DNA of 64,000 nucleotides, from positions 33,299 through 97,298 of IMG/VR virus record IMGVR_UViG_3300010396_000042; one strand, written 5' to 3'. Made by a program: the position numbers and the translations under genes. The DNA comes from a virus. The notes beneath the pieces were generated by a model that saw only the letters and a program-made list of their open reading frames with translations, was not told the DNA's origin and ran no database searches. This document shows positions 2,852 to 50,829 of this stretch, piece by piece; position 1 is the first letter of the stretch; every line of letters starts with the position of its first letter.

Positions 2852-3363
2852 CGGTTTCGATTCCGGACGCGCTGCGCGCGATCGCGTGGCTGCTGGTCCC
2901 CAGCCACTTGTACGCGATCTACAGCGAGCAAGTCCTCGTGCACGGACTCGCCCTGTTCGCTCTGGCGGTGCTGGCGCGACGGGTGCTGCGACGTTACCGG
3001 CGCGCTCTGGCCGCACTGCTGCTGAGCACGGCGCTGCTGTCCGCCGCGCCGCCTGTCTGGCGCGCCGCGGCCACCCGCTCCCGGTACACCCATCCCCGGC
3101 TCGTGCACGCAGCGCACGCTCCGCGCCGCCCAGTGCGCAAGAGCGCCGCCACAACCGCCTCCGCCGCAGCGAAGAACACCGAGACGGCCGTCGCCGCGAT
3201 TGCGGAGCGGGCGAGCGCCGCGAGCGAGCGGATGCCGGCCCGCCCGGTACCACGGCAGGCCGCACGCCGCCTAAACGAGGCGCAGCTGCTCGCGATCGCC
3301 AACGACACCGTCATCGGACCGCTGATCGAGGCCTGCCGGCAGGCCGCGGGAGGCGCACGGTGA
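2848..3363 (+). CDS. Putative membrane protein
   Basis: Hydrophobic N-terminal segments; ATGA overlap. Confidence 0.55.
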   Translation: MTVSIPDALRAIAWLLVPSHLYAIYSEQVLVHGLALFALAVLARRVLRRYRRALAALLLSTALLSAAPPVWRAAATRSRYTHPRLVHAAHAPRRPVRKSAATTASAAAKNTETAVAAIAERASAASERMPARPVPRQAARRLNEAQLLAIANDTVIGPLIEACRQAAGGAR

Positions 3364-3602
3364 CCAGCTTCTTCTCCCCCGATGTGGTCCTCGCCGTCAT
3401 CGCGATCGCCAGCTTCGCGATCGCCCTGTGCGCGACCGCCGTGATGCTCGCCATCCGCGCGTCGCGCCGTCGCGCCGCCCGACACGCGCTGGCCGCGATC
3501 CGCGTCCCGGCCGCCGAGACAGTACTGAACGGCGAACCGTACCGCGCACTCAAGGACGGTCTCACCACTGCGGCGACGACAGCGAAGGCGGCCCGCCGAT
3601 GA
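3360..3602 (+). CDS. Small single-TM membrane protein
   Basis: GTGA overlap; VVLAVIAIASFAIALCATAVMLAI followed by Arg run. Confidence 0.55.
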   Translation: MTSFFSPDVVLAVIAIASFAIALCATAVMLAIRASRRRAARHALAAIRVPAAETVLNGEPYRALKDGLTTAATTAKAARR

Positions 3603-4213
3603 CTGTGCGCACCGCCGGCGCCGAAGAGCTCTGCGCGCACTGCGCCCTGGTGCCCGCGGACTTCGCCGACGACCTCGGACATGACCACCTCGGCCACTAT
3701 GCCGTCGGCGTGCTGCGAAGGGGCGGCATCGACACCCGGGCGCGCCTCGCGCAGGCCACGGACGCCGAGCTGATGCTCGTGCGCAACCTCGGCCCGCAGG
3801 CACGTGCCCGCGTCCGCCAGGCCTTCCCCGCACCGCAGCCGACCCAGCGCCCCGCCGGCTACAGTCCCCGGGCGTTGCTCGACCGGCTGCCCGCGAGCGT
3901 CGACGTCCCGCACTGGATGCTCACCGACAGCGCAGCCGCGGCGTCCCTGTGGATCCTGACCGCGATCTCCCGCACCGACAAGCGGATCTGGCAGCACCTC
4001 ACCCACCGCATGATCAAATACGCGGACATCGTCCGAGAAGGCGGCTGGTCGCCGTCGGAGCTCGCCCTGCTGCACGCGGCCCGCTGCCTCGCCGGCCAGG
4101 CTCAGATCGGTCCGAACCTCGACGAGCTGGCCGCGTCGCTGGACGAGACACGGTGGGACGCGCTACTCGAGGCGCTGCGCATCCGCCGCACCGGACTGCG
4201 AGGCAGCAGCTGA
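3599..4213 (+). CDS. Protein with RNA polymerase alpha C-terminal-domain-like (HhH) module
   Basis: AVGVLRRGGIDTRARLAQATDAELMLVRNLGPQARARV follows the alphaCTD pattern L-x-R-x-GI-x-T...L...RN-x-G. Confidence 0.65.
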   Translation: MTVRTAGAEELCAHCALVPADFADDLGHDHLGHYAVGVLRRGGIDTRARLAQATDAELMLVRNLGPQARARVRQAFPAPQPTQRPAGYSPRALLDRLPASVDVPHWMLTDSAAAASLWILTAISRTDKRIWQHLTHRMIKYADIVREGGWSPSELALLHAARCLAGQAQIGPNLDELAASLDETRWDALLEALRIRRTGLRGSS

Positions 4214-4617
4214 TGCATCCCGCCGCGCACATCGTCCTGTCCGGCATCGAGGCCTGCCGCCGCTGCCTGCGCCAGCACCCCGGTCAGCCGGTCAAAGCCG
4301 TCGCCCGGCGCTTCGACTACGCCGAGAGCGCGGCTGCCGCCCGCCCGGCCGGCCCGGCGGATCCGGGCGCGCGCCGCTGGGTCGAACTGCGCCCGCACAG
4401 CGCCGGCGTCGCCATCCAGATCGTCACCGAGACCCGACGCACCCTCGCCGAATCCGTGCTCTACCCGGCCACGCCCGACGCGTCCGGCACCGACCGGCTG
4501 TGGCTCGGCATCGACCCCGCCGCGATCACCGCGCCGCCATTCCTGACCACGCTCGCCGCCGCGGCCGACCGCGCGCTCGAGCGACTCGATTCGTTCCCGG
4601 AGCTCCTCCATGGCTGA
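4213..4617 (+). CDS. Hypothetical phage protein
   Basis: TGATG coupling, codon bias. Confidence 0.5.
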   Translation: MHPAAHIVLSGIEACRRCLRQHPGQPVKAVARRFDYAESAAAARPAGPADPGARRWVELRPHSAGVAIQIVTETRRTLAESVLYPATPDASGTDRLWLGIDPAAITAPPFLTTLAAAADRALERLDSFPELLHG

Positions 4618-4999
4618 CACCACAACCGTACCCGCGGCCGCCGTGACGACGACCGCTGTGCCGATGGCCGCGCCGTCCGCGTCGATCCCGGGCCAGCGCC
4701 GCACCATTGCGCTCGACGTCCACACGCCCGCGGGGCTCGAGGTGTGGCAGTTCCCGCTCGCCCGCCACGTCCAAGCCGTGGTCGACACCGGCGTGCACCC
4801 CGCCACCCGGCAGGCGATACACCCCGACGCGGCCGCCACCTGCTTCAGCTGCCAGCACGCCGTCCAGCGGGCCGTCGCCGGAGGCGGAGCGCGCACCCGT
4901 TGCGCGGTGTCGGTCTCCCGCCGCAAGGGACCCGACCTGCTCCCGATCTTCCCCGCCTGCACCCAATACACCCAGCGCCTCGAAGGGCCGACACCGTGA
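4610..4999 (+). CDS. Hypothetical Cys-containing phage protein
   Basis: HPAT..CFSC..C..PAC pattern; overlaps neighbours. Confidence 0.6.
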   Translation: MADTTTVPAAAVTTTAVPMAAPSASIPGQRRTIALDVHTPAGLEVWQFPLARHVQAVVDTGVHPATRQAIHPDAAATCFSCQHAVQRAVAGGGARTRCAVSVSRRKGPDLLPIFPACTQYTQRLEGPTP

Positions 5000-5610
5000 T
5001 CCCTGCTTCCATTCAAGCCCTGCGGCGCGCACGAGGCCTGCACGGCGTCCTCGTCGAGATCCTTGGCCAGCAGATCGTCGACGGCACCGTCGACCCCGGC
5101 AAGCCCCTCGTGCCCGAGGCGGTGGGCGAGAAGTACGAGGTCTCGCGCACGGTCGTTCGCGAAACCCTGCGGGTTCTGGAAACCAAGGGCCTGATCGCCG
5201 CGCGGCCGAACACCGGCACGAGGGTCCGGCCGATCGAGGAGTGGAACCTGCTCGACGCCGACGTGCTGCGCTGGCGCGCCAGCAGCGAAGCGAACGGCGA
5301 TGACGTGCTCGGCGAGCAGGTGCGGGTGTTCACCGGGATGATGCTCGCGCTGCGCCCTGCCCTCGAGGACAACCTGCTTTACCGGCAGCTGCTCGCGGTA
5401 CTCGGCGTCACGCCCGAACCCGCGGCCGACGGCGCGATCGAAGACGCCGCCACGGCCGCGGCGGACGCGGGCGCCGAAGCGGCCGAGGAGCTCGACGGGG
5501 AGGGCATCGAGGAACTAGGTGCGGGCGCGGGCGCCGCCTTCGTCGCAACCGTCCTCGAGGCCGCCTCCCCCACGCCTGCGCTTTCGCAGCACGCTGAGGC
5601 CGCGGCATGA
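4996..5610 (+). CDS. GntR/FadR-family winged-HTH protein, WhiH-like DNA-binding domain, lacking a recognisable FCD domain
   Basis: RGLHGVLVEILGQQIV..LVPE..YEVSRTVVRETLRVLETKGLI.ARPNTGTRVRP..WNLLD; acidic Ala-rich tail. Confidence 0.85.
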   Translation: MIPASIQALRRARGLHGVLVEILGQQIVDGTVDPGKPLVPEAVGEKYEVSRTVVRETLRVLETKGLIAARPNTGTRVRPIEEWNLLDADVLRWRASSEANGDDVLGEQVRVFTGMMLALRPALEDNLLYRQLLAVLGVTPEPAADGAIEDAATAAADAGAEAAEELDGEGIEELGAGAGAAFVATVLEAASPTPALSQHAEAAA

Positions 5611-6023
5611 GACCGGACCTGCCCCCGATCGACAACGAGACCTGGCGGCTCGTCGTCGAGGACACCCAGACCGAGTTCGCCCGCGCCGCCGTGCTGCTGG
5701 GCGAGCACGACCGGCGCGACGGAACCGGCAGGCACGACTACGGCACCCAGGCCGAGCAAGCAGCGTTCTCCGCGCGGCGCGCCCGAGGCAAGAACAAGCT
5801 CACCTGGCGCCATCTGGCCGCCGAGCTGTACTGGGCCACGATCGCGGAAAGCGATGAGCGGGTTCTGCGCGAGCGGCTCCTGCGCCTGGCCGCGCTCGCC
5901 CTGCTCTGGGCTAGCGCCATCGACCGCCGCTCACAGCAAAAGGCCTCCGCGCCATCCAAGACCTCCGGCGCGCCTTCCCCCGCGCCGGAGAACCCTGACA
6001 CCAGTAGACGGGCTGAATCATGA
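5607..6023 (+). CDS. Degenerate MazG-like helical phage protein
   Basis: TWRHL..E....AESD...LRERL..LAALA..W..AIDRR pattern. Confidence 0.45.
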   Translation: MRPDLPPIDNETWRLVVEDTQTEFARAAVLLGEHDRRDGTGRHDYGTQAEQAAFSARRARGKNKLTWRHLAAELYWATIAESDERVLRERLLRLAALALLWASAIDRRSQQKASAPSKTSGAPSPAPENPDTSRRAES

Positions 6024-16504: not shown

Positions 16505-16578
16505 GGCTCCGTAGCTCAGCGGTTAGAGCAGCGCGCCTTATAAGCCGCAGGTCGCGGGTTCGAACCCCGCCGGAGCTA
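16505..16578 (+). tRNA. tRNA-Ile (anticodon TAT), atypical anticodon stem
   Basis: Acceptor GGCTCCG/CGGAGCT, D arm GCTC/GAGC, loop CT-TAT-AA, T arm GCGGG-TTCGAAC-CCCGC; one extra C in the 5' anticodon strand. Confidence 0.8.
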
Positions 16579-22637: not shown

Positions 22638-23147
22638 GTGACCCGTTCTCCGCCCGGCCCGTACGGCAGGGTACGACGAAGCAAAGCCCCCCCCACTGCT
22701 GTCGCTGCGCCTTCCGTTGAGCAGCTCCTCGTCGAGGCCGAGCAGTGCCCGGTTGAGCCGGTCCGGATGCTGGCCACGCAGATCCGGGCCGCGATCGAGC
22801 AGCTGCGCGGCAAGCTCGATGAGGTCGCCGCGTTCACCGCCACTCAGCGGGAACTGCTCGACGCCGAGGCCCGCGTCGCCGAGCTGCGCGCGAAGCTCAA
22901 GGTCCTCGCCCACGCCGACGGGCCTCGACCAGCCGGCGGCGGCGAGCCGAAGCAGCGCAGCGCGGCCAGGCCGCCCGCGCCGGCCGTGCCCGCGGCGCCG
23001 GTCACCGCCGCGACGGCTGCGGTCAACGGCAAGGACATCCGTTACTCGAACGCGGTACGCGACTGGGCCCGCGCCCGCGGCATGAAGGTCGCCCCCAGCG
23101 GCCGCATCTCCGACACGATCATCGCCGCCTACCGCGCCGTCCACTGA
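22638..23147 (+). CDS. Coiled-coil protein with C-terminal Lsr2 DNA-binding domain
   Basis: AVRDWARARGMKVAPSGRISDTIIAAY. Confidence 0.8.
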   Translation: MTRSPPGPYGRVRRSKAPPTAVAAPSVEQLLVEAEQCPVEPVRMLATQIRAAIEQLRGKLDEVAAFTATQRELLDAEARVAELRAKLKVLAHADGPRPAGGGEPKQRSAARPPAPAVPAAPVTAATAAVNGKDIRYSNAVRDWARARGMKVAPSGRISDTIIAAYRAVH

Positions 23148-23605: not shown

Positions 23606-23785
23606 GTGTATTCCAAGCCCTCGCTCGGCGCCGCCGCCGGTACCGCCGTCGCCGCCCCCGCCGTCCTCGGCGGCGACGCCACCTGGTACATCCTTTCCGG
23701 CATTCTCGTCCTGGTCGTCGCCGGCCTGGTGACCGTCCGGATCGTCGGGCGCCGGGGCGGCCGCGGCCGCGGCGGGCGGCACTGA
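23606..23785 (+). CDS. 59-aa membrane peptide coupled to the glycosyltransferase (absent from the ORF track)
   Basis: GTG 23606: MYSKPSLGAAAGTAVAAPAVLGGDATWYILSGILVLVVAGLVTVRIVGRRGGRGRGGRH*; TGATG overlap with GT2. Confidence 0.65.
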   Translation: MYSKPSLGAAAGTAVAAPAVLGGDATWYILSGILVLVVAGLVTVRIVGRRGGRGRGGRH

Positions 23786-25116
23786 TGCGCCGCTGCCTGC
23801 AGCGCCACCTACGGCCGCACGTCCCGATCGGCGTTTTCGCCGTGATCGGCGCCGTGCTGTGGTGGGACTGGCGTTTCACCCACGGCCCGAGCTGGTACGG
23901 CATCGCCGTACTCGGGCTGCTGACCGCGAAGCTCGCCCTCTCCCTCGGCTCCCGCCCGTATCAGGCATCCGGGGCCGGCGCTGCCCGCGTCGCGCACCTC
24001 AAGGCCGTGGCGGTGATCACCTGCTACAACGAGAAACCCGACCTGCTGCGCGCCTGCCTGCGTTCCCTGCTGGAGCAGTCCCGCCGCCCGCGGGCCCTGG
24101 TCGTGGTCGACGACGCCTCCACCGACCCGGCCTGCCGCCGCGTCGCCGAGAGCTTCGCGCCGCGCTTCGCCCGCGCCGGCATCGACTTCCGGGTGATCGC
24201 CTTCAAGGAGAACAAGGGCAAGCGCCACGCCCTGGCGGCCGCGTTCGACGCGCACCCGAAGGCCGACGTGTACGTGTGCGTCGACTCCGACACCCACCTG
24301 GACCCGGACGCCGTGCGCAACGTGCTGCAACCCTTCGCGTCCCGCCGCACCAACGCCGTCACCGGCCTCGTCCTGGCCAGCAACGCCCGGCAGAACCTGC
24401 TCACCCGGCTGATCGACCTGCGCTACGCCAACGCGTTCCTCTACGAGCGCGCCGCCTACAGCCTGCTCGGCTCCGTGCTGTGCTGCTGCGGCTCCCTCGC
24501 GGCCTACCGCGGCAGCGTGGTGCGCGAGCACCTCGGGGACTTCCTCGGCCAGCAGTTCCTCGGCCGCGCCTGCACCTACGGCGACGACCGGCGCCTGACC
24601 CAGTACGCGCTGCTGCGCGGCCGCGTCGTCCTGCAACCCAACGCCGTGGCGTGGACCGAGGTACCCAGCAACCTGCCCTGGTACATCCGCCAGCAGAACC
24701 GCTGGAACAAAAGCTTCTTCCGAGAATCCCTGTGGACCGTGACCAGGGCGCGCATGCACCGGCCCGCGTTCTGGCTCGCCGCGGTCGAACTCGGCTCCTG
24801 GGCCACGTTCACCATCGCGCTGCTCACCGCCCTGGTCGCCCTGCCACTGCGCGCAGGGCACGTGCACGGCTCCTGGTCTCTCGCAGGCGCCTACGCGATG
24901 TACGCGATGCTGCTGTCCTACGCCCGCTCCGCCCGGTACGTCGAAGTGCGGCACGTGGCCATGCCCTGGCCCGAGCGGATCGGCAGCTACCTGCTCGCCC
25001 CGCTCTACGGCCTGCTCAACCTCGGGCTGCTGCTGTGGGTGCGCCTCTACTCCCTGGCCACCCTGCGCGACAATGGCTGGGGCACGAGAGCGACTGTCGA
25101 GGCGGTGAGTTCGTGA
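23785..25116 (+). CDS. Processive GT2 glycosyltransferase, hyaluronan synthase/NodC-like
   Basis: DDAS, KGKR, VDSD, CCGSLAAYR, GDDRRLT, QQNRW motifs; flanking TM helices; ends GWGTR. Confidence 0.9.
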   Translation: MRRCLQRHLRPHVPIGVFAVIGAVLWWDWRFTHGPSWYGIAVLGLLTAKLALSLGSRPYQASGAGAARVAHLKAVAVITCYNEKPDLLRACLRSLLEQSRRPRALVVVDDASTDPACRRVAESFAPRFARAGIDFRVIAFKENKGKRHALAAAFDAHPKADVYVCVDSDTHLDPDAVRNVLQPFASRRTNAVTGLVLASNARQNLLTRLIDLRYANAFLYERAAYSLLGSVLCCCGSLAAYRGSVVREHLGDFLGQQFLGRACTYGDDRRLTQYALLRGRVVLQPNAVAWTEVPSNLPWYIRQQNRWNKSFFRESLWTVTRARMHRPAFWLAAVELGSWATFTIALLTALVALPLRAGHVHGSWSLAGAYAMYAMLLSYARSARYVEVRHVAMPWPERIGSYLLAPLYGLLNLGLLLWVRLYSLATLRDNGWGTRATVEAVSS

Positions 25117-26000
25117 TGGTCTCCGACGTCATCGCGAACGTGCGGCCCCGACACAGCTCCGGCGACCTGCGGATGCTCAATCCTGTCGAGCGCAAAGCTG
25201 CACTGATGGCCTGGGGTGGCGCGGACCTGGTGGACATCGCGACCGAGACGGGTATGCCCTTTCAGCACGTCCGGGAAGCCGTCGCATTGCAGGCCAAATG
25301 GAGACGCGAGCCGCCGCCGCCCGGCTGGGATCCTGGTCCGCAACCCGAACCGGTGCCGGATCCGGATCCGGATCCGGATCCGGATCCGCTCGGCGAGGTC
25401 GGCGATCTCTCCTCACCCCTGCCGGTCTACGCAGGCGGCATCGATCGCTTACCAGCCGAGGATCGAGCGGACCTGGAACGCGGGCAGGAAAACATCCAGC
25501 GCCTGCTCGACCAGGCGCAGGCCGAGGAGGGGCGGGACGCCGAACTCGAGCAGCTCGTCCAACCGCGCCCCGCACCACGACCGGTCTCGATCTCGATGGG
25601 CGGAATGGACATCGCGCAAACCGTGCGCGCCGGCGAACGCAGCGACGATGCGCACGCCAGAGCGCTGGCGGGGCGTATCCGCCGCCAGGTCAACGAACTG
25701 AGCGCATACCTCGCCACGAAGACGGAGATCGACCTCGCCCATCAGCGAATCAGCACGCTGCAAGACGAGGTCGAATCCCTCAAGAGGATCGTCCGGCACC
25801 GCGAATCGCACCGCCCGGCCAATGCCCGGGCCGCTGCGAGAGAGCCAACCGCACCCGTGATCAAGGCGACGGACGACATGAGGTACTCGACGACAGTGCG
25901 GGACTGGGCACGACTACACGGCCTTGCGGTCGCAGACAGAGGCCGCATCGCCAACAGCGTCGTCCAGGCGTACCTGGCGGCGCATCCCGCCGAGCGCTAG
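25116..26000 (+). CDS. Protein with N-terminal HTH-like segment, PD repeat and C-terminal Lsr2 DNA-binding domain
   Basis: VRDWARLHGLAVADRGRIANSVVQAY with intact RGR hook. Confidence 0.75.
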   Translation: MVSDVIANVRPRHSSGDLRMLNPVERKAALMAWGGADLVDIATETGMPFQHVREAVALQAKWRREPPPPGWDPGPQPEPVPDPDPDPDPDPLGEVGDLSSPLPVYAGGIDRLPAEDRADLERGQENIQRLLDQAQAEEGRDAELEQLVQPRPAPRPVSISMGGMDIAQTVRAGERSDDAHARALAGRIRRQVNELSAYLATKTEIDLAHQRISTLQDEVESLKRIVRHRESHRPANARAAAREPTAPVIKATDDMRYSTTVRDWARLHGLAVADRGRIANSVVQAYLAAHPAER

Positions 26001-26290
26001 ACGATGGCGGCGCGTCGTGTCCTGCGCATGGCGCGCCGCGCCGCCCGCGTCCCGTTCGCCTCTTTCGCGGCGCGACTCAGTGCCCGGCTGGCCATCACAG
26101 CGCGCCCGATCTTCGCCGCGCAGTGCTCGCCGAGCCGCGCCGCGGTCGACGCCTCGGCATGCACCGGGTGCTTGCACACCGAGCACTTCACCGGGCCCGA
26201 AGCGTCCTGGGCCGCGATCCACGCGCGCTCGTACTCCGCGAAATCCGGATCGAGCTCGAAGATCGAGGTCTGACCCTGCGATACGTCCAT
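25997..26290 (-). CDS. DUF6011-like Zn-binding protein
   Basis: CSVCKHPV..S..RLGEHCA. Confidence 0.55.
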   Translation of the reverse strand: MDVSQGQTSIFELDPDFAEYERAWIAAQDASGPVKCSVCKHPVHAEASTAARLGEHCAAKIGRAVMASRALSRAAKEANGTRAARRAMRRTRRAAIV

Positions 26291-26440
26291 ATCACTATGG
26301 TGCCCGCTGCGTCCGACAATCAGCACCCCGATTACCAGAAAACCCGCACCGGGACACGGGCACCCGCGAACCTCATTTGTTAGGCCGCCACGCGGCGCAA
26401 ATCATTCGCTGCCGGTGATCCGCACGGCTACCGTGATCTC

Positions 26441-26522
26441 GTCCCGGTGCGATAGGCGACGGTTACTTCCTCTCCTCTCCAGAGAACCCAAGAACACCGC
26501 CGCCGGCCTTCGATCTCGGGGC
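26441..26522 (+). ncRNA. Y-RNA-like unit 1 (conserved helix only, no tRNA module)
   Basis: GTCCCG-GTGCGATAGGCGACGG-TTACTTC..CCGCCGCC..TTCGATCT-CGGGGC. Confidence 0.7.
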
Positions 26523-26538
26523 ACACAACTGAACAATG

Positions 26539-26691
26539 ACTGCGAACGCCCGCCAGGTGCGTAGGAGAGAGCTACTTCCAACTTGCTGATTGGGTGGTCC
26601 GGGTTCGAATCCCGGCGGACCTTCGGGTCTGTGGTGTAACGGCAGCACTCTTGTCGCTTTCCCCGATTCGATCTCTGGCGGCACTCGCAGT
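26539..26691 (+). ncRNA. YrlA-like Y RNA unit 2 (T arm, UUCG-closed acceptor stem, D arm)
   Basis: CCGGG-TTCGAAT-CCCGG, CGGACC-TTCG-GGTCTG, TGGTGTAACGGCAGCAC inside the GGTGCG..TTCGATCT helix. Confidence 0.85.
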
Positions 26692-26699
26692 GGAACGCA

Positions 26700-26804
26700 C
26701 CTCCCGGTGCGCAGGCCACAGGTACTTCTTGGTCACCATGGGTTCAAATCCCATCCGCGCCCTGACCGGCGCGGGGTTCCTGCAGCCGCTTCGATCTCGG
26801 GAGG
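26700..26804 (+). ncRNA. Y-RNA-like unit 3 (minihelix: T arm plus closed acceptor stem)
   Basis: ATGGG-TTCAAAT-CCCAT, CCGCGCC-ctgacc-GGCGCGG; closing CCTCCCG/CGGGAGG. Confidence 0.8.
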
Positions 26805-26832
26805 ATCGAACGCTGAACAACTGAATACGGCA

Positions 26833-26986
26833 CCTCCCGGTGCGCAAGGCGAGGAGTTCTTCACAGTCGTCGCGGGTTCAAATCCCGTCGCCCGCAACAC
26901 GTGGGGCGTGGCTGAGCGGCCTAAAGCGCAGGGCCCACGAGGCCCTGTTCGACGGACGAGCCTCACCTGTTCTCGATCTCGGGAGG
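26833..26986 (+). ncRNA. YrlA-like Y RNA unit 4 (T arm, closed acceptor, Ser/Leu-type D arm, extra hairpin)
   Basis: GCGGG-TTCAAAT-CCCGT, CGCCC/GGGCG, TGGCTGAGCGGCCTAAAGC, CAGGGCC/GGCCCTG; closing CCTCCCG/CGGGAGG. Confidence 0.8.
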
Positions 26987-26997
26987 GACAGCATTGG

Positions 26998-27142
26998 GGT
27001 CACGCCCGGTGCGCAGGTAACGGGTCCTTCGGAATCAAGGGTTACTGGTTCGAGTCCAGTCGCCGCCCTCACCGGCGGTGTGGCTCAATTGGTAGAGCAT
27101 TGGTCTAACAACCCCGTCGCCGCTTCGATCTCGGGCGTGGCC
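26998..27142 (+). ncRNA. YrlA-like Y RNA unit 5 (T arm, 7-bp closed acceptor, D arm)
   Basis: ACTGG-TTCGAGT-CCAGT, CGCCGCC-ctcacc-GGCGGTG, TGGCTCAATTGGTAGAGC; closing GGTCACGCCCG/CGGGCGTGGCC. Confidence 0.85.
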
Positions 27143-27186
27143 ACTCTTCTCTCCTCCCACCGCATCCGTTCGATGGGAGTCGAGCC

Positions 27187-28842
27187 TTGTCCCGCTTCAA
27201 CACCCCGGCCGCCAAGCCGGCCGTCCACTCCCCGATCGCCACCCAGGCCGTGGCCACCATCAGCACCCATGAGGGCGCGCCGGGTTATGCCCGATCGGAC
27301 GCTAAGGGTGAGCTGTTTCTGCTCGCGGTCTCCAACCTGGTGGGCAAGAACACCTTCTACGAGCAGGCCGGCGCCCGTGACGAGCGGTTCGAGCGCCTCA
27401 TCCACCAGGTCGCGATCGAGGATCCCGCCTGGCTCTCACGCTTCATCCCCTGGCTGCGCGGCGAGGCCAACATGCGCACCGCGTCCCTGGTCGCGGCCGC
27501 GGAGGCGGTCAAAGCACGCCTGGACGCCGCTAAGGGGACCGCCAACAACCTCGGCGCCCAGCTCACGGTCGGCCAGCAGACCGACGAGCACACCGCGGGC
27601 GGCCAGAACCGCAAGCTGATCGATGCCGCGTGCCAGCGCGCGGACGAGCCCGGAGAGCTGCTCGCCTACTGGACGTCCCGCTACGGTCGCGCGATCCCCA
27701 AGCCGGTCAAGCGCGGCCTGGCCGACGCCGTGCGCCGCCTCTACAGCGAGCGGTCGCTGCTCAAGTACGACACCGACTCCAAGGGCTACCGCTTCGGCGA
27801 CGTCATCGACCTCGTACACCCCTCCCCCGCTGTGGACCGGCGCTGGCAGGGCGAGCTGTTCGAGCACGCCCTCGACCGCCGCCACGGGCGCGACAAACCG
27901 ATCCCCGCCGGCCTGTCCACGCTGATCGACCGCGAGCGGCTGATGGCCACACCGCTCGACCAGCGCCGCGAGACACTGCGCCGACACCCCGAGCTCCTTG
28001 CGCGCGCCGGCATGACCTGGGAGGCCCTCGCGGGCTGGCTGCAGGGCCCGATGGACGCCGAGGCGTGGTCGGCGATGATCCCGTCCATGGGGTACTTCGC
28101 GCTGCTGCGCAACCTGCGCAACTTCGACCAGGCCGGCGTGCCCGACGAGGTCGCCGAGAGCGTGGCCGCGCGCCTCGCGGACCCATCACAGGTCGCATCC
28201 TCCCGCCTGTTCCCGTTCCGGTTCTACGCCGCGCACAAGAACACCGGCTCGCTGCGCTGGGGCCACGCCCTGGAGAAGGCGCTGCGCGCGTCCCTCTCCA
28301 ACATCCCGGCGCTTCCCGGCCGCACGCTGGTGCTCATCGACCAGTCGCCGTCGATGTTCCCCGGCTTCCACTTCTCAACGCCCAGCGACAGCGACATCTC
28401 CGCCGCGGAGAAGGCCGCGCTGTTCGGCGCCGCCGTGGCGCTGCGCGCGCAGAACGCCGACCTGGTCGGGTACGGGCAGAACAACTACCGGGTGCCGTTC
28501 GGCAAGGGCGACGCGGTGTTGGAGGTGATGAAGCGCTTCCGGATGGACGACGGCACGGACACCCCGCGCGCGATGGTCGAGCACTTCCGCGGCCATGACC
28601 GGGTGCTGATCGTCACCGACGAGCAGACCGCGTACTCGAACACCGGCCGCACCGTCGACAACGCCGTGCCGGCCAACGTTCCTGTCTACACCTGGAACCT
28701 CGCCGGTTACCGGCCCGGGCACGCCCCATCCGGCACGAGGAACCGCCACACCTTCGGCGGCCTGACCGACCACGCCTTCAAGATGGTGCCGCTGCTCGAG
28801 GCGGGACGGGGCCAGCAGTGGGATGTCGTATTCGGCAAATAG
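27187..28842 (+). CDS. rsr: Ro60/Rsr TROVE-domain RNA-binding protein with vWA domain
   Basis: MSRFN..THEG..ELFLLAV..TFYE; RADEPGE; MTWEAL; ALLRNLRN; SRLFPFRF; vWA MIDAS DQSPSM and VTDEQ; TTG start with GGGAG RBS. Confidence 0.93.
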   Translation: MSRFNTPAAKPAVHSPIATQAVATISTHEGAPGYARSDAKGELFLLAVSNLVGKNTFYEQAGARDERFERLIHQVAIEDPAWLSRFIPWLRGEANMRTASLVAAAEAVKARLDAAKGTANNLGAQLTVGQQTDEHTAGGQNRKLIDAACQRADEPGELLAYWTSRYGRAIPKPVKRGLADAVRRLYSERSLLKYDTDSKGYRFGDVIDLVHPSPAVDRRWQGELFEHALDRRHGRDKPIPAGLSTLIDRERLMATPLDQRRETLRRHPELLARAGMTWEALAGWLQGPMDAEAWSAMIPSMGYFALLRNLRNFDQAGVPDEVAESVAARLADPSQVASSRLFPFRFYAAHKNTGSLRWGHALEKALRASLSNIPALPGRTLVLIDQSPSMFPGFHFSTPSDSDISAAEKAALFGAAVALRAQNADLVGYGQNNYRVPFGKGDAVLEVMKRFRMDDGTDTPRAMVEHFRGHDRVLIVTDEQTAYSNTGRTVDNAVPANVPVYTWNLAGYRPGHAPSGTRNRHTFGGLTDHAFKMVPLLEAGRGQQWDVVFGK

Positions 28843-33087: not shown

Positions 33088-34053
33088 GTGAGCTGCGTCT
33101 ACTTCCACTCCCAGCATGGCACTGCGAAGCTGCGTGGCAGCGAACGCGCGCACCTCGGCGCGCTCGTCAGCGATCTAACGACCGGGTTTCTGCGCCGCGC
33201 ATACAGCCGCCAGGTCGACCAACTGCTCACGCTGATCCGGCCCGGTCACTACCTGCACGAGATCGACCATGCCGCATCGGGCTGGCTGCATCCGTGGCTT
33301 GACTCGTTCGCCACCGCGCTGGCCACCGGGATCCAGAGCGAACTGCTGGTCTGGAACGGCAGGCCCATCGATCCGTTCGCCGTGTGCCTGAACACCGCGA
33401 TGCGCTACGGCAGCGATCCGGTGCGCCTGGCCGCACGCATCCACGGACAATGCGAAATCCACTGTTACGTCGAGGGCATCAACCGCGCGTGGCTGGCCAA
33501 CCTCGTTGAGCAGGGCCTTGAGGACCGTGTATACCGCGACGGTATCTGGTACGTCGACCGCGTATGCGAAGGACACCCCGCCGCCCAGCCGGACCGCAAA
33601 TGGTGCGACCAGGGCTGGGGCGAGGTCATGAAGCTCCTGCGGGACCGCGATGACGAACCCGTGGTCATGTCGTACTCGGTCTGCGACGGCTTCCCGAACC
33701 AGGAGATCGCAGGGTGGCAGGACACGCAGATGCCTGAGGGCTGGGTGCCCGAGTGGGTGCGCGGCGACGAGGAACGCGTGCTCGAGTGGGAGACTGATTA
33801 TTCGACCGCGCAAGAACGGCAGGAGTGCTACCGCGACTGCACCAGCGGTGGTTGGGGCGAGCTGAGTCAGTCGGAGCAGTGGGAACTCGGCATAGCGGGC
33901 CTGCGGGCGAGCTCCGGCGGCCTGGAGATCTCACCGGACGAGTTCGGCAAGTACTACTTCAGCCCCGGCCTGACGCTCCCGGACCTACTCGCACCAGACT
34001 ATGCCGAGCGTCTGCATCAGGCCCTTGTGCCCGACGTGGAGTCGACGCCGTGA
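33088..34053 (+). CDS. Conserved hypothetical phage protein
   Basis: YFHS..GSERAH..LNTA..RIHGQCEIHCYVEG..PVVMSYSVCDGFPN. Confidence 0.7.
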   Translation: MSCVYFHSQHGTAKLRGSERAHLGALVSDLTTGFLRRAYSRQVDQLLTLIRPGHYLHEIDHAASGWLHPWLDSFATALATGIQSELLVWNGRPIDPFAVCLNTAMRYGSDPVRLAARIHGQCEIHCYVEGINRAWLANLVEQGLEDRVYRDGIWYVDRVCEGHPAAQPDRKWCDQGWGEVMKLLRDRDDEPVVMSYSVCDGFPNQEIAGWQDTQMPEGWVPEWVRGDEERVLEWETDYSTAQERQECYRDCTSGGWGELSQSEQWELGIAGLRASSGGLEISPDEFGKYYFSPGLTLPDLLAPDYAERLHQALVPDVESTP

Positions 34054-34941: not shown

Positions 34942-35634
34942 ATGCACATCCTGCTGCAGGGCATCGTCGGCTCGACCGCGTACGGCCTTGCCGGACCCGA
35001 GAGCGACGTCGACCGCGCCGGCGTGTTCGCGCACCCCACCGCGCTGCTGTTCGGCCTATCGAAGCCCGCCGAGTCGATCGTCACCACCAAGCCCGACGTG
35101 ACGTATCACGAGGCTGAAAAAGCGTGTCGGCTCATGCTCAGCTGCAACCCGACCGCGATGGAAACCCTCTGGCTCGAGTCCTGGGAGATCAAGACCGCGC
35201 TCGGGGACGAGCTGGTCGGGCTGCGCTCCGCGTTCCTGTCGGCACGGCGCGTACGCGAGGCGTATCTGGGCTATGCGACCGACCAGTTCCGCAAGGCGAT
35301 CAACTGCGCCGACGGCTCCTTCAATTCCGACATCCCGCCGCGGCGCGCGAGCAAGCACGCCAGGCACCTGATGCGCCTGGTCGAGCAGGGGTTCGAGCTG
35401 TACGCCACCGGGCGGCTGCACATCCGGGTCGAGGACCCGCAGCGCTACATCGACTTCGGTGAACGCACCGCCGCCGACCCGCTCTCCGCGCTGCCGTATC
35501 TGACCGAGGCGCGCCAGCGCTTCGACCGCACGCCCTCAGCGCTGCCGGAGGAACCCAGAAGGGGCGCGGTCGAATCCTGGCTGCGCCGGGTGCGCGCCGA
35601 GTACTACCGCGTTCCGGCGGCCGCCGATGCGTGA
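34942..35634 (+). CDS. RlaP-like (pol-beta superfamily) nucleotidyltransferase
   Basis: GSTAYGLA.PESDVD..G; NP..E.LW; KHARHLMRL; TAAGGAAG RBS. Confidence 0.85.
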   Translation: MHILLQGIVGSTAYGLAGPESDVDRAGVFAHPTALLFGLSKPAESIVTTKPDVTYHEAEKACRLMLSCNPTAMETLWLESWEIKTALGDELVGLRSAFLSARRVREAYLGYATDQFRKAINCADGSFNSDIPPRRASKHARHLMRLVEQGFELYATGRLHIRVEDPQRYIDFGERTAADPLSALPYLTEARQRFDRTPSALPEEPRRGAVESWLRRVRAEYYRVPAAADA

Positions 35635-36259
35635 ACGCGCGCAGCTACCCGAAGCCGTGGTGTTCGATTGTGATGGGACGCTCGTCGACGTCTCCTCGAT
35701 CCGGCACCTGGTGGCCGGCGGCCCGGAGAACGGCTACCGCAAGGACTTCGACTCCTTCCACCGCGAGGCGGTCAACTGCCCGCCGCACCCATGGGTGGTC
35801 CAGGCCGCGCAGGCCGAGCACGCCGCCGGCCGCGCGGTGCTCATCGTCACCGGGCGCTGCGCCGAGTACCGCAATTCCACCGCGTTCTGGCTCGCGATGC
35901 ACGACGTGCCATCGGACGCGATGTGGATGCGGGCCCGCGGCGATTACCGGCCCGACTACGTGGTCAAGGCCGAGATCCTCGCGAAGATCCGCACGCGCTG
36001 GCGTGTGGTGCGTGCGTACGACGACAACCCAAACGTCCTGAGACTCTGGGCCCAGGAACGCATCGCGACCGTCGTCGTCCCGGGATGGGAGCTGCAGAAC
36101 GAGCACCACGACGAGGACGCGGACCGCGAGCAGTTCCGGCGCGAACGCGAGGGCCGCTGGACGGTCAGTCCACCATGCCACACTGATCACGAAGCGAGCG
36201 CGGTGCGTGACCGCGCGAACACCGAACGAGAGAGACGAGCATGGCTACCGGCACGGTGA
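35627..36259 (+). CDS. HAD phosphatase, T4 PNK 3'-phosphatase-like
   Basis: [24 protein letters not shown]. Confidence 0.85.
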
Positions 36260-36444
36260 AGTGGTTCAACGCCGAGAAGGGCTACGGGTTCATCGCCCAG
36301 GACAACGGCGAGCAGGACGTCTTCGTGCACTACAGCGCGATCGACGGCAAGGGCTACCGGGAGCTGGCCGAAGGCCAGAAGGTCAGCTACGAGGTCGAGC
36401 AGGGCCCGAAGGGCCCGCAGGCCGCGAAGGTACGCCTGGCATGA
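36241..36444 (+). CDS. cspA: Cold-shock protein
   Basis: [34 protein letters not shown]. Confidence 0.95.
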
Positions 36445-50156: not shown

Positions 50157-50829
50157 TACGTCCGGTCCGGCGCTGTGCAGGCGCATCAGCCATGACCCGC
50201 GCAACGTACGCGGCGAGCTCTTGCGAACTCCTGCACCCGACCCAGAATCGGGCGGCACCGGCCCGGATGCACAGTCTCGCCGTCGCCGTGGGAAGCGGCG
50301 GAGAGCACGCACCGGCAGCGGTCACACGCGAAACCGGCAGCGTTCATGAAACCCCGGCGGTCAGCTCGGTCGAGGCGGAGGGCAAGCCGCGAAGGCGAAC
50401 CCGGGGAAGCCGACGACGCCGGGCCGACCGACCGCCGCACAGAATTCGAATGGCCTGGTCCGCCGATGTGCCGGCGGATGCCGCGCCGTGCCGGCAGCCC
50501 CGCACGGCATCCCGTTCTTCCCGCGCGTCCCCGCACTGGGGGCGAGGGCGCGCGGGAACTCCACCCGTCACCGGGAAGGCGGTCGCGATGAACCAGCGCG
50601 GCCCCCGCATCGTCGCGACCGCGCTCGTCGGGCTCGGGTTCCTCGCCCTGATCGCCGCAGCGACCGCCGAAGCAATCCTCGTCTACGCAGCCCAGCTCGC
50701 CATCGGCGTCGCCGAACGGCTCTAAACGAGCGATCACGGTGTTGCATCAAAGCAACATCTGGCCACCACTGCACCAATGTTGCGAATACGCAACACGTGC
50801 TCTTGAGTCGTTGAGAGCAGGTGACTCGG

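Follow-up and report, generated by a model that had tools for sequence, protein, structure and literature searches.

The 64,000-nucleotide stretch of viral DNA analysed here (positions 33,299 to 97,298 of the IMG/VR record IMGVR_UViG_3300010396_000042, referred to below as the window) carries five small RNA units in tandem at positions 26441-27142 and, immediately downstream, a gene for a Ro60/TROVE protein (rsr, 27187-28842). Very probably, a temperate actinophage carries here a Y RNA operon that belongs to the actinobacterial YrlA/YrlB family; the operon is a sizeable representative of the known YrlA/YrlB-Rsr system in its form with several RNAs, which is widespread and under-annotated. A first-pass annotation, made from the sequence alone, had taken the units for Y-RNA-like RNAs resembling YrlA, next to the Ro60 gene of a phage; alignments to the Rfam YrlA model, the published order of modules and the TROVE gene downstream uphold this description. 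The array occupies an 860-bp gap lacking any credible open reading frame (ORF) between a DUF6011 gene on the minus strand (25997-26326), which forms the left border, and rsr. It stops 44 nt 5' of rsr on the same strand and lies, as is expected of YrlA RNAs, within 4 kb of a TROVE gene. Two ORFs overlapping the array (26590-27108 and 26840-27619) were considered as coding sequences (CDSs) and rejected, as they fail the test of third-codon-position GC content that the real genes of this genome pass.

Architecture of the five units

All five units were found where the first-pass annotation had placed them, and the sequence reads as described there. They lie on the plus strand and share one scaffold, which consists of a closing stem, the motif GGUGCG..AGG, a stem, the motif (U/C)(A/U/C)CUUC, a payload, a further stem and the motif UCGAUCU. 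The constant parts, designated the handle, form two helices and include a bulged U in UCGAUCU; the internal motif of the handle reads UACUUC in units 1 to 3, UUCUUC in unit 4 and UCCUUC in unit 5. In RNAfold predictions, every unit is closed by its own terminal stem and contains a second stem, the T arms and acceptor hairpins are recovered, and in units 2 to 5 a UUCRANY T arm is followed by a hairpin.

Unit 1 (26441-26522) is composed of the handle, the second stem, UACUUC and a pyrimidine-rich interior with a short hairpin; it contains neither a T arm nor any other tRNA-like part. Small first units of 70-84 nt head most of the related arrays. Unit 2 (26539-26691) is of the YrlA type, with an outer stem formed by 26539-45 and 26685-91 and a core at 26550-26681. 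Its T arm (26599-615) is preceded by an anticodon-arm-like hairpin of 5 bp with the 8-nt loop CUUGCUGA (26577-94) and followed by a 6-bp acceptor hairpin closed by UUCG (26616-31) and a D arm (26633-49). Unit 3 (26700-26804) is a YrlB-like minihelix containing a T arm (26738-54) and a 7-bp acceptor hairpin with the loop CUGACC (26755-74), but no D arm. The long unit 4 (26833-26986) comprises a T arm (26872-88), an acceptor hairpin (26889-908), a D arm with the loop GAGCGGCCUAAA (approximately 26909-29) and an extra 6-bp hairpin (26930-46). Unit 5 (26998-27142), a canonical YrlA, has a 12-bp closing stem, an anticodon-stem-like pairing of 27034-38 with 27100-104, a T arm (27044-60), a 7-bp acceptor hairpin with the loop CUCACC (27061-80) and a D arm (27083-98) of the form GCUC-AAUUGGUA-GAGC. 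The circularly permuted order of T arm, closed acceptor-like stem-loop and D arm is therefore present in units 2, 4 and 5, while unit 3 contains the T arm and acceptor only and unit 1 none of the three. The list of inserts in the first-pass annotation was correct in outline; its labels "Gln-type" and "Ser/Leu-type" for the D arms of units 2 and 4 were judged here by eye alone. For unit 2, the T arm, the UUCG-closed acceptor and the D arm were confirmed, and the hairpin before the T arm and the outer stem, both absent from that list, have to be added.

Conservation and covariation of the handle

The motif GGTGCG-N2-3-GG-N7-9-YTTC occurs five times in the 64-kb window and TCGATCTCKGG likewise five times, in every case within the array, whereas shuffled sequences led us to expect 0.33 and 0.13 occurrences, respectively. 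A covariance model with five helices, designated R1, was built from four units of the window and seven homologues and scores all five units with E values from 6e-27 to 2e-9: unit 1 with 49.7 bits (E 2e-9), unit 2 with 120.4 bits (E 6e-27), unit 3 with 90.8 bits (E 1.3e-19), unit 4 with 52.8 bits (E 3.7e-10) and unit 5 with 105.2 bits (E 3.7e-23). Elsewhere in the window, R1 gave only non-significant matches (E 0.26-0.78). Chance repeats were considered as an explanation and are ruled out by these motif and model statistics.

The covariation of the closing stems, pointed out in the first-pass annotation, is evident even among the five copies of the window, whose stems differ plainly. In an alignment of 80 distinct homologous units, 93% of the cells were paired, compared with 36-47% when the partners were slid, both sides had changed in 28 of 31 pairs, all helices covaried, and the covariation score was 0.469 versus 0.05-0.07; as this alignment was fitted to R1, the figures lean towards the structure. 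In a set of 75 non-redundant units, GGUGCG, the U-CUU of UACUUC and one C:G pair were invariant, as was the C-U-C with the bulged U in UCGAUCUC. The YUAY site of these units showed U29, C31 and U32 without exception and A30 in 67 of the 75.

Relationship to YrlA and YrlB RNAs

The published layout of YrlA opens with a proposed Rsr-binding stem and the motif YUAY; an optional hairpin termed "V" comes next, then the T arm, the closed acceptor-like stem and the D arm, and the return strand completes the RNA (PMC4201824; 10.1101/312249). In a search of 1 kb with the Rfam YrlA model (RF02553), unit 5 was aligned from end to end with 37.8 bits (E 1.6e-6) and unit 2, also from end to end, with 26.2 bits (E 0.0037); unit 4 gave a partial, non-significant alignment (15.3 bits, E 5.3). 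An Rfam scan at gathering thresholds returned no YrlA and only a borderline tRNA call in unit 2, and the Rfam Y_RNA model did not match the array. At the start of the V region, units 1 to 3 read UUAC, CUAC and GUAC, respectively, and in units 4 and 5 UUC and UCC replace UAC. By module content, unit 5 is a canonical YrlA, unit 2 is nearest to YrlA and unit 3 is nearest to the YrlB of Mycobacterium smegmatis; units 1 and 4 have no described counterpart. These links are supported by the probe sequences published for the M. smegmatis RNAs (PMC4201824), which match the unit types: in the RNA sense, the YrlB probe contains ..ACUUC-AAGGUUCGA, as in the type of unit 3, and reads GGCGACUUCAAGGUUCGA, i.e. 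the type in which the T arm directly follows ACUUC, and the YrlA 5' probe reads UUAC-CA-CUUCUAA-UG, the type with a hairpin.

The first-pass annotation had proposed a cassette with a constant handle and variable payloads. This is borne out here as a description of the locus, but it does not stand as a new idea, since a Ro-binding stem joined to an effector-binding domain is already the accepted modular view of Y RNAs (PMC4201824; 10.1101/312249).

Distribution and turnover of the arrays

A search with the Ro60 protein yielded 8 viral and 22 bacterial loci, which were examined with R1. In 28 of these 30 loci, one to six units were found 5' of the Ro60 gene and on the same strand, and 24 loci contain at least two. 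Counting the window together with the 28 loci, 4 have one unit, 8 have two units, 4 have three, 10 have four (four of these being copies of one phage), 2 have five and 1 has six; L028 was counted as a two-unit locus, its second match being non-significant. As a rule, the first unit is small, one to four tRNA-like units come next, and a full YrlA adjoins rsr. In five whole genomes of 3-9.6 Mb, 15 of the 16 R1 matches fall into clustered arrays, including known rsr loci, and the remaining one is a stray weak match (E 6.7e-4). R1 matches were present in 15 of 151 actinobacterial genomes drawn evenly from the class, among them one array of five and one of four units. Arrays also occur in cultured phages, namely four units in the Streptomyces phage BRock, three in the Gordonia phage Trax and two or three in the Gordonia phage VanLee.

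Multi-unit arrays are thus common among the 30 loci and also occur in the sampled genomes, and two earlier expectations have to be revised. The array had been considered unusual on the grounds that loci typically have one or two RNAs; related loci have up to six and the sampled genomes up to five. Nor is the view of it as an exceptional, purpose-built cassette supported, as the same layout is found in ordinary bacterial loci and in cultured phages. Five bacterial loci (L009, L012, L014, L015 and L022) have ordinary cellular neighbours (a beta-lactamase fold protein, GNAT, hydrolases, hemerythrin, and a short-chain dehydrogenase/reductase), and four of the five contain three or four units, from which it follows that the arrays are native to cellular rsr loci. 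The layout is inherited with the operon and was not built by the phage. Five units mark the upper end of a common, little-described layout, which may already be listed in earlier literature.

The closest phage contigs indicate how the content of an array changes. Orthologues of unit 2 are 87% and 82% identical in the phage contigs L001 and L008, respectively, and the remaining units are only 66-76% like their best matches; each of these two contigs has four units and no counterpart of unit 4. In a soil contig from another study, a relative with approximately 90-95% identity, positions 26580-26829, i.e. the payload of unit 2 and unit 3, are replaced by 126 unrelated letters, resulting in a four-unit variant. 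Array content therefore turns over between close relatives, and the comparison suggests that payloads turn over quickly while the handle stays.

The rsr gene and its product

The rsr gene (27187-28842, plus strand) starts with TTG and encodes a Ro60/TROVE protein of 551 amino acids with a vWA domain. The product matches the Pfam TROVE family (5.2e-14) and, over residues 25-542, PHROG 850, "RNA-binding protein" (1.1e-45). Its closest solved structure is the Ro60 of the Thermus phage phiLo (PDB 9KOP/9L5Y, 4e-22). In the vWA part, which follows the TROVE part as expected, the DxSxS motif of the MIDAS (adhesion site dependent on a metal ion) is kept (LIDQSPSM). In the viral contig L008, the Ro60 ORF (3001-5853) encodes 950 amino acids, with LAGLIDADG and intein-splicing domains inserted near residue 307, and the Ro60 matches of L025 (residues 1-307) and L028 (263-545) break at about the same place. 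The sequences point to an intein in some Ro60 genes.

Candidate expression signals and proposed function

A candidate promoter is predicted at 26405-26434, where a -35-like TTCGCT (26405-10) and a -10-like TACCGT (26429-34) are separated by 18 nt; it ends 6 nt 5' of unit 1. In most related loci, a TAnnnT hexamer is found no more than about 25 nt (usually 6-14 nt) 5' of the first unit, and in L003 the first unit is preceded by TTGACA-17-TAAGCT. The spacers between core units measure only 15-28 nt and leave no room for internal promoters, and a scan of the plus strand for terminators detected none before rsr. The spacer motif ACAACUGAA (26525-26533), which is repeated at 26817-26825, is a likely processing site; ACAACU(G/U)NA or a similar A-rich motif is present in the spacers of L001, L008-L013, L015 and L027, which include both bacterial and phage loci, and the first spacer of L008 agrees with that of the window in all of 26 nt, even though the two Ro60 proteins share only about 65% identity. 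Between the array and rsr, CUCCCA (27154-59) pairs with UGGGAG (27174-79) in a hairpin (27154-27179) that buries the rsr Shine-Dalgarno (SD) sequence GGGAG. L001, L008, L009, L010, L012, L015 and L027 have analogous anti-SD/SD hairpins in the interval from the last unit to the start of rsr, and the order of array, hairpin and rsr is conserved in related bacteria and phages. The conservation of the hairpin suggests translational control of Ro60.

On this basis, the operon might work as follows. A single promoter just 5' of unit 1 would give one transcript covering the array and rsr, from which cleavage at the A-rich spacers with ACAACU would release five small RNAs and the rsr message. Each RNA would bind the phage Ro60 via its handle, and the payload would determine what the resulting particle engages. 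One partner may be the PNPase of the host, so that a RYPER-type machine for the degradation of structured RNA would arise, by analogy to Yrn1 of Deinococcus and Yrl1/2 of phiLo; the particles would then probably redirect the host exoribonuclease towards structured RNAs. The tRNA-like payloads would in addition be recognised or handled by tRNA enzymes, for which determinants are visible in the UUCRANY T loops and in the 7-bp acceptor stems of units 3 and 5. A 7-bp acceptor stem is the determinant that makes M. smegmatis YrlA a substrate both of RNase P and of the enzyme that adds CCA (PMC4201824). Units 3 and 5 are accordingly expected, like that RNA, to be opened by RNase P and given CCA, whereas unit 2, with 6 bp closed by UUCG, would stay closed.

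Objections and alternative explanations

Four points weigh against the assignment to the YrlA/YrlB family and the function outlined above. No unit attains the Rfam YrlA gathering score (the best being 37.8 versus 69 bits). The motif GNCGAAN0-1G, the proposed Rsr contact, is represented by no more than a variant, as the units of the window read GUGCG-(AU/U/C/CA/C)-AGG and none has an exact CGAA. The candidate promoter is a weak match to the consensus, and a generic sigma-70 promoter scan found none. Finally, the tethering of PNPase is an argument from analogy, and no actinobacterial YrlA is known to tether it. With respect to the second point, many homologues read GGUGCGAAGG at the position of the Rsr-contact motif, and GUGCG-N-A-GG is a clade variant of this motif and not its absence.

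The hairpin before the T arm bears on several of the alternatives. A stem of 4-6 bp with a 7-nt loop was present in 23 of the 42 units with room for it, compared with 19% in shuffles, and a Y-U-NNN-R loop, mostly CUNNUAA, located 3-5 nt before the T stem, in 15 of the 42 compared with 1.6%; the 42 units are related by descent, so that the shuffle statistic overstates their independence. The 5' half of unit 2, which contains the anticodon-arm-like hairpin, is read as a tRNA by ARAGORN and by the Rfam tRNA model (29.7 bits, threshold 29), but it does not form the cloverleaf of a functional tRNA, since the call uses the Ro handle as acceptor strand and involves three mismatched D-stem pairs. In deposited phage genomes, tRNA calls coincide with R1 units in VanLee (L031, 2048-2119, Arg(tct)), Frankenweenie (L032, 2122-2212, Pro(tgg)) and GiJojo (L034, 2268-2342, Arg(cct)), and in Trax (L035, 2070-2480, gp91-93) small hypothetical CDSs are annotated where R1 places units, just 5' of the Ro-like gene. 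These tRNA and CDS annotations probably represent mis-annotated 5' halves of YrlA-type RNAs.

The calls in unit 2, at threshold for Rfam, and those of the annotators of VanLee, Frankenweenie and GiJojo are what would favour a reading of the units as tRNA genes, permuted or decayed, whose products mature into functioning tRNAs, or as relics of a tRNA array unconnected with Ro60. We rejected this reading and give it next to no credence, because the calls take the Ro handle as acceptor strand and do not include a proper D arm, the handle shows invariance and covariation in 75 units, nearly all of them beside Ro60, and bacteria are not known to have a route for splicing permuted tRNAs (10.1101/312249). 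The hairpin counts enter into the proposal that the tRNA-like payloads are decoys which soak up host tRNA-targeting nucleases or toxins (VapC, MazF, PrrC-like) and so protect tRNAs, Ro60 serving mainly as a stabilising carrier. Unit 2 and many homologous units have the 5-bp anticodon-like hairpin (15 of 42 versus 1.6% in shuffles), ARAGORN and genome annotators take such units for tRNAs, the D arms seem to be of different tRNA classes, and a competitive inhibition of an anticodon nuclease by the tRNA-like domain of Salmonella YrlA has already been suggested (Hughes et al. 2020; PMC7790460). The phage has tRNAs of its own and, 6 kb downstream, three adjacent genes at 34942-36444, whose products are a nucleotidyltransferase of the RlaP family (1e-18), a HAD phosphatase of the PNKP type (2e-19) and a cold-shock protein (1e-31). 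Nevertheless, we regard the decoy function as unlikely: units 3, 4 and 5 have no anticodon loop and unit 1 has no tRNA part, the shared descent of the counted units reduces the force of the hairpin statistic, and arrays of three to four units also occur in chromosomal loci with ordinary neighbours, which argues against an invention for phage counter-defence. Moreover, neither an RNA ligase nor a kinase is encoded in the record; a search of its 97 kb (approximately 85% complete) for RtcB, RNA_ligase and AAA_33 kinase domains gave no match.

A bolder form of the idea takes the "V" stem-loop of Chen et al. as an anticodon-arm mimic in this clade and the units of an array as a panel that engages or blocks different tRNA-reading enzymes, i.e. 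as a tRNA shield borne by Ro60. It rests on the succession of a 5-bp stem, a 7-nt loop CU-NNU-AA (the signature of tRNAs for ANN codons), a variable loop of 4-5 nt and the T arm, and we consider it rather improbable. If it were true, units such as unit 2 would be near-complete permuted tRNAs, the members of the panel would differ in D-arm class, in open or closed acceptor and in "anticodon", candidate targets would be anticodon nucleases and the t6A machinery, and host or phage tRNAs would be shielded. A different role would fall to the RNAs if the array acted mainly in cis as a structured 5' leader, with Ro60, bound to the last unit or units and to the SD-burying hairpin, feeding back on rsr translation, and with the free RNAs as a by-product. 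In agreement with this, array and rsr lie on the same strand without a terminator between them, the distance from the end of the last unit to the start codon is fairly constant (34-75 nt in 20 of 29 loci), and the SD-burying hairpin is conserved. Yet YrlA and YrlB of M. smegmatis are discrete, Rsr-bound RNAs (PMC4201824), in L002, L003 and L006 the units extend over 1-2 kb and small ORFs separate the last of them from rsr, and feedback does not require five different payloads. A leader function as the main role of the array is hence improbable to a marked degree, and the reading of the locus as a Y RNA operon of the YrlA/YrlB family is the one that we prefer.

Genomic context

The window is the right-hand 64 kb of a virus record of 97,298 bp with 69% GC, which is approximately 85% complete according to CheckV. 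It contains genes for an integrase, for WhiB-like regulators, for a TraB/FtsK-like protein and for a tail spike. Near-identical public DNA was found only in soil metagenomes, one of which is possibly the source sample, and no RNA data set was listed as matching the stretch. Upstream of the array lie a gene for a protein with an Lsr2 DNA-binding domain (22638-23147) and, shortly after it, a gene for a family-2 glycosyltransferase (23785-25116), and another match to the Lsr2 domain is located near 25900-26000. A tRNA at 16505-16578 is a good match (62 bits); its loop reads CUUAUAA (Ile-UAU-like), its anticodon stem contains one additional base, and ARAGORN was unable to type it. On the minus strand at 50188-50281, ARAGORN reports a 94-nt "tRNA-Gln" without Rfam support.

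Significance

The graded arrays of this clade amount to a natural deletion series with which the purpose of the tRNA-like domain in bacterial Y RNAs can be studied, since a single Ro60 handle is combined with an empty interior, with a minihelix or with a complete permuted tRNA that has or lacks an anticodon-like arm. The question is accessible at the bench through the cultured phages BRock, VanLee and Trax and through culturable actinomycetes. There are also consequences for annotation: the Rfam cut-off for YrlA passes over every one of these units, their 5' halves are wrongly labelled by tRNA finders as tRNAs in phage genomes that have been deposited, and small ORFs are annotated over them.

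Comparison with known systems

One of the closest known systems is the YrlA/YrlB-Rsr system of M. smegmatis (Chen et al. 2014; PMC4201824), in which both RNAs are bound by Rsr and in which cleavage by RNase P and addition of CCA take place. As in the window, its RNAs lie 5' of rsr on the same strand. In the M. smegmatis YrlA (approximately 147 nt), the YUAY/ACUUC motif leads, as here, into a hairpin, after which come the T arm, a closed acceptor stem of 7 bp and the D arm, and the CCA-CUUCUAA-UGG of this RNA matches the hairpin loops of the array family; in YrlB, the T arm directly follows ACUUC, as in unit 3. The systems differ in that two RNAs have been described there compared with five here, units 1 and 4 having no described counterpart, and in that the M. 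smegmatis locus is chromosomal whereas that of the window belongs to a phage. Salmonella YrlA (RF02553; structure 6CU1, 10.1101/312249) likewise joins a permuted tRNA-like domain (T arm, closed acceptor, D arm) to an Rsr-binding stem. However, its model scores only 37.8 and 26.2 bits here against a threshold of 69, the handle of the window contains GGUGCG-N-AGG instead of GNCGAAN0-1G, and the Salmonella RNAs lie 3' of rsr within the rtcBA repair operon, whereas no RtcB was found in the record from which the window derives.

The Thermus phage phiLo also encodes a Ro60 with Y-like RNAs directly upstream, and this Ro60 binds the two upstream Yrl RNAs (Yrl1/2) and the host PNPase in vitro (PMC12135203). 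The two RNAs of phiLo were found via a CGAA motif and no tRNA-like domains have been described for them, whereas four of the five units here have tRNA-like parts. Paralogues that combine one Ro-binding stem with differing effector parts are known from Yrn1 and Yrn2 of Deinococcus radiodurans and from metazoan Y RNAs, with two to four paralogues in vertebrates and four small RNAs 5' of the Deinococcus rsr (PMC4201824). The GGUGCG-N-AGG of the window resembles the vertebrate GGUCCGA (quoted in PMC4201824). In the Deinococcus and metazoan RNAs, the variable parts are pyrimidine-rich loops; in the array described here, they are tRNA-like payloads in all units except unit 1.

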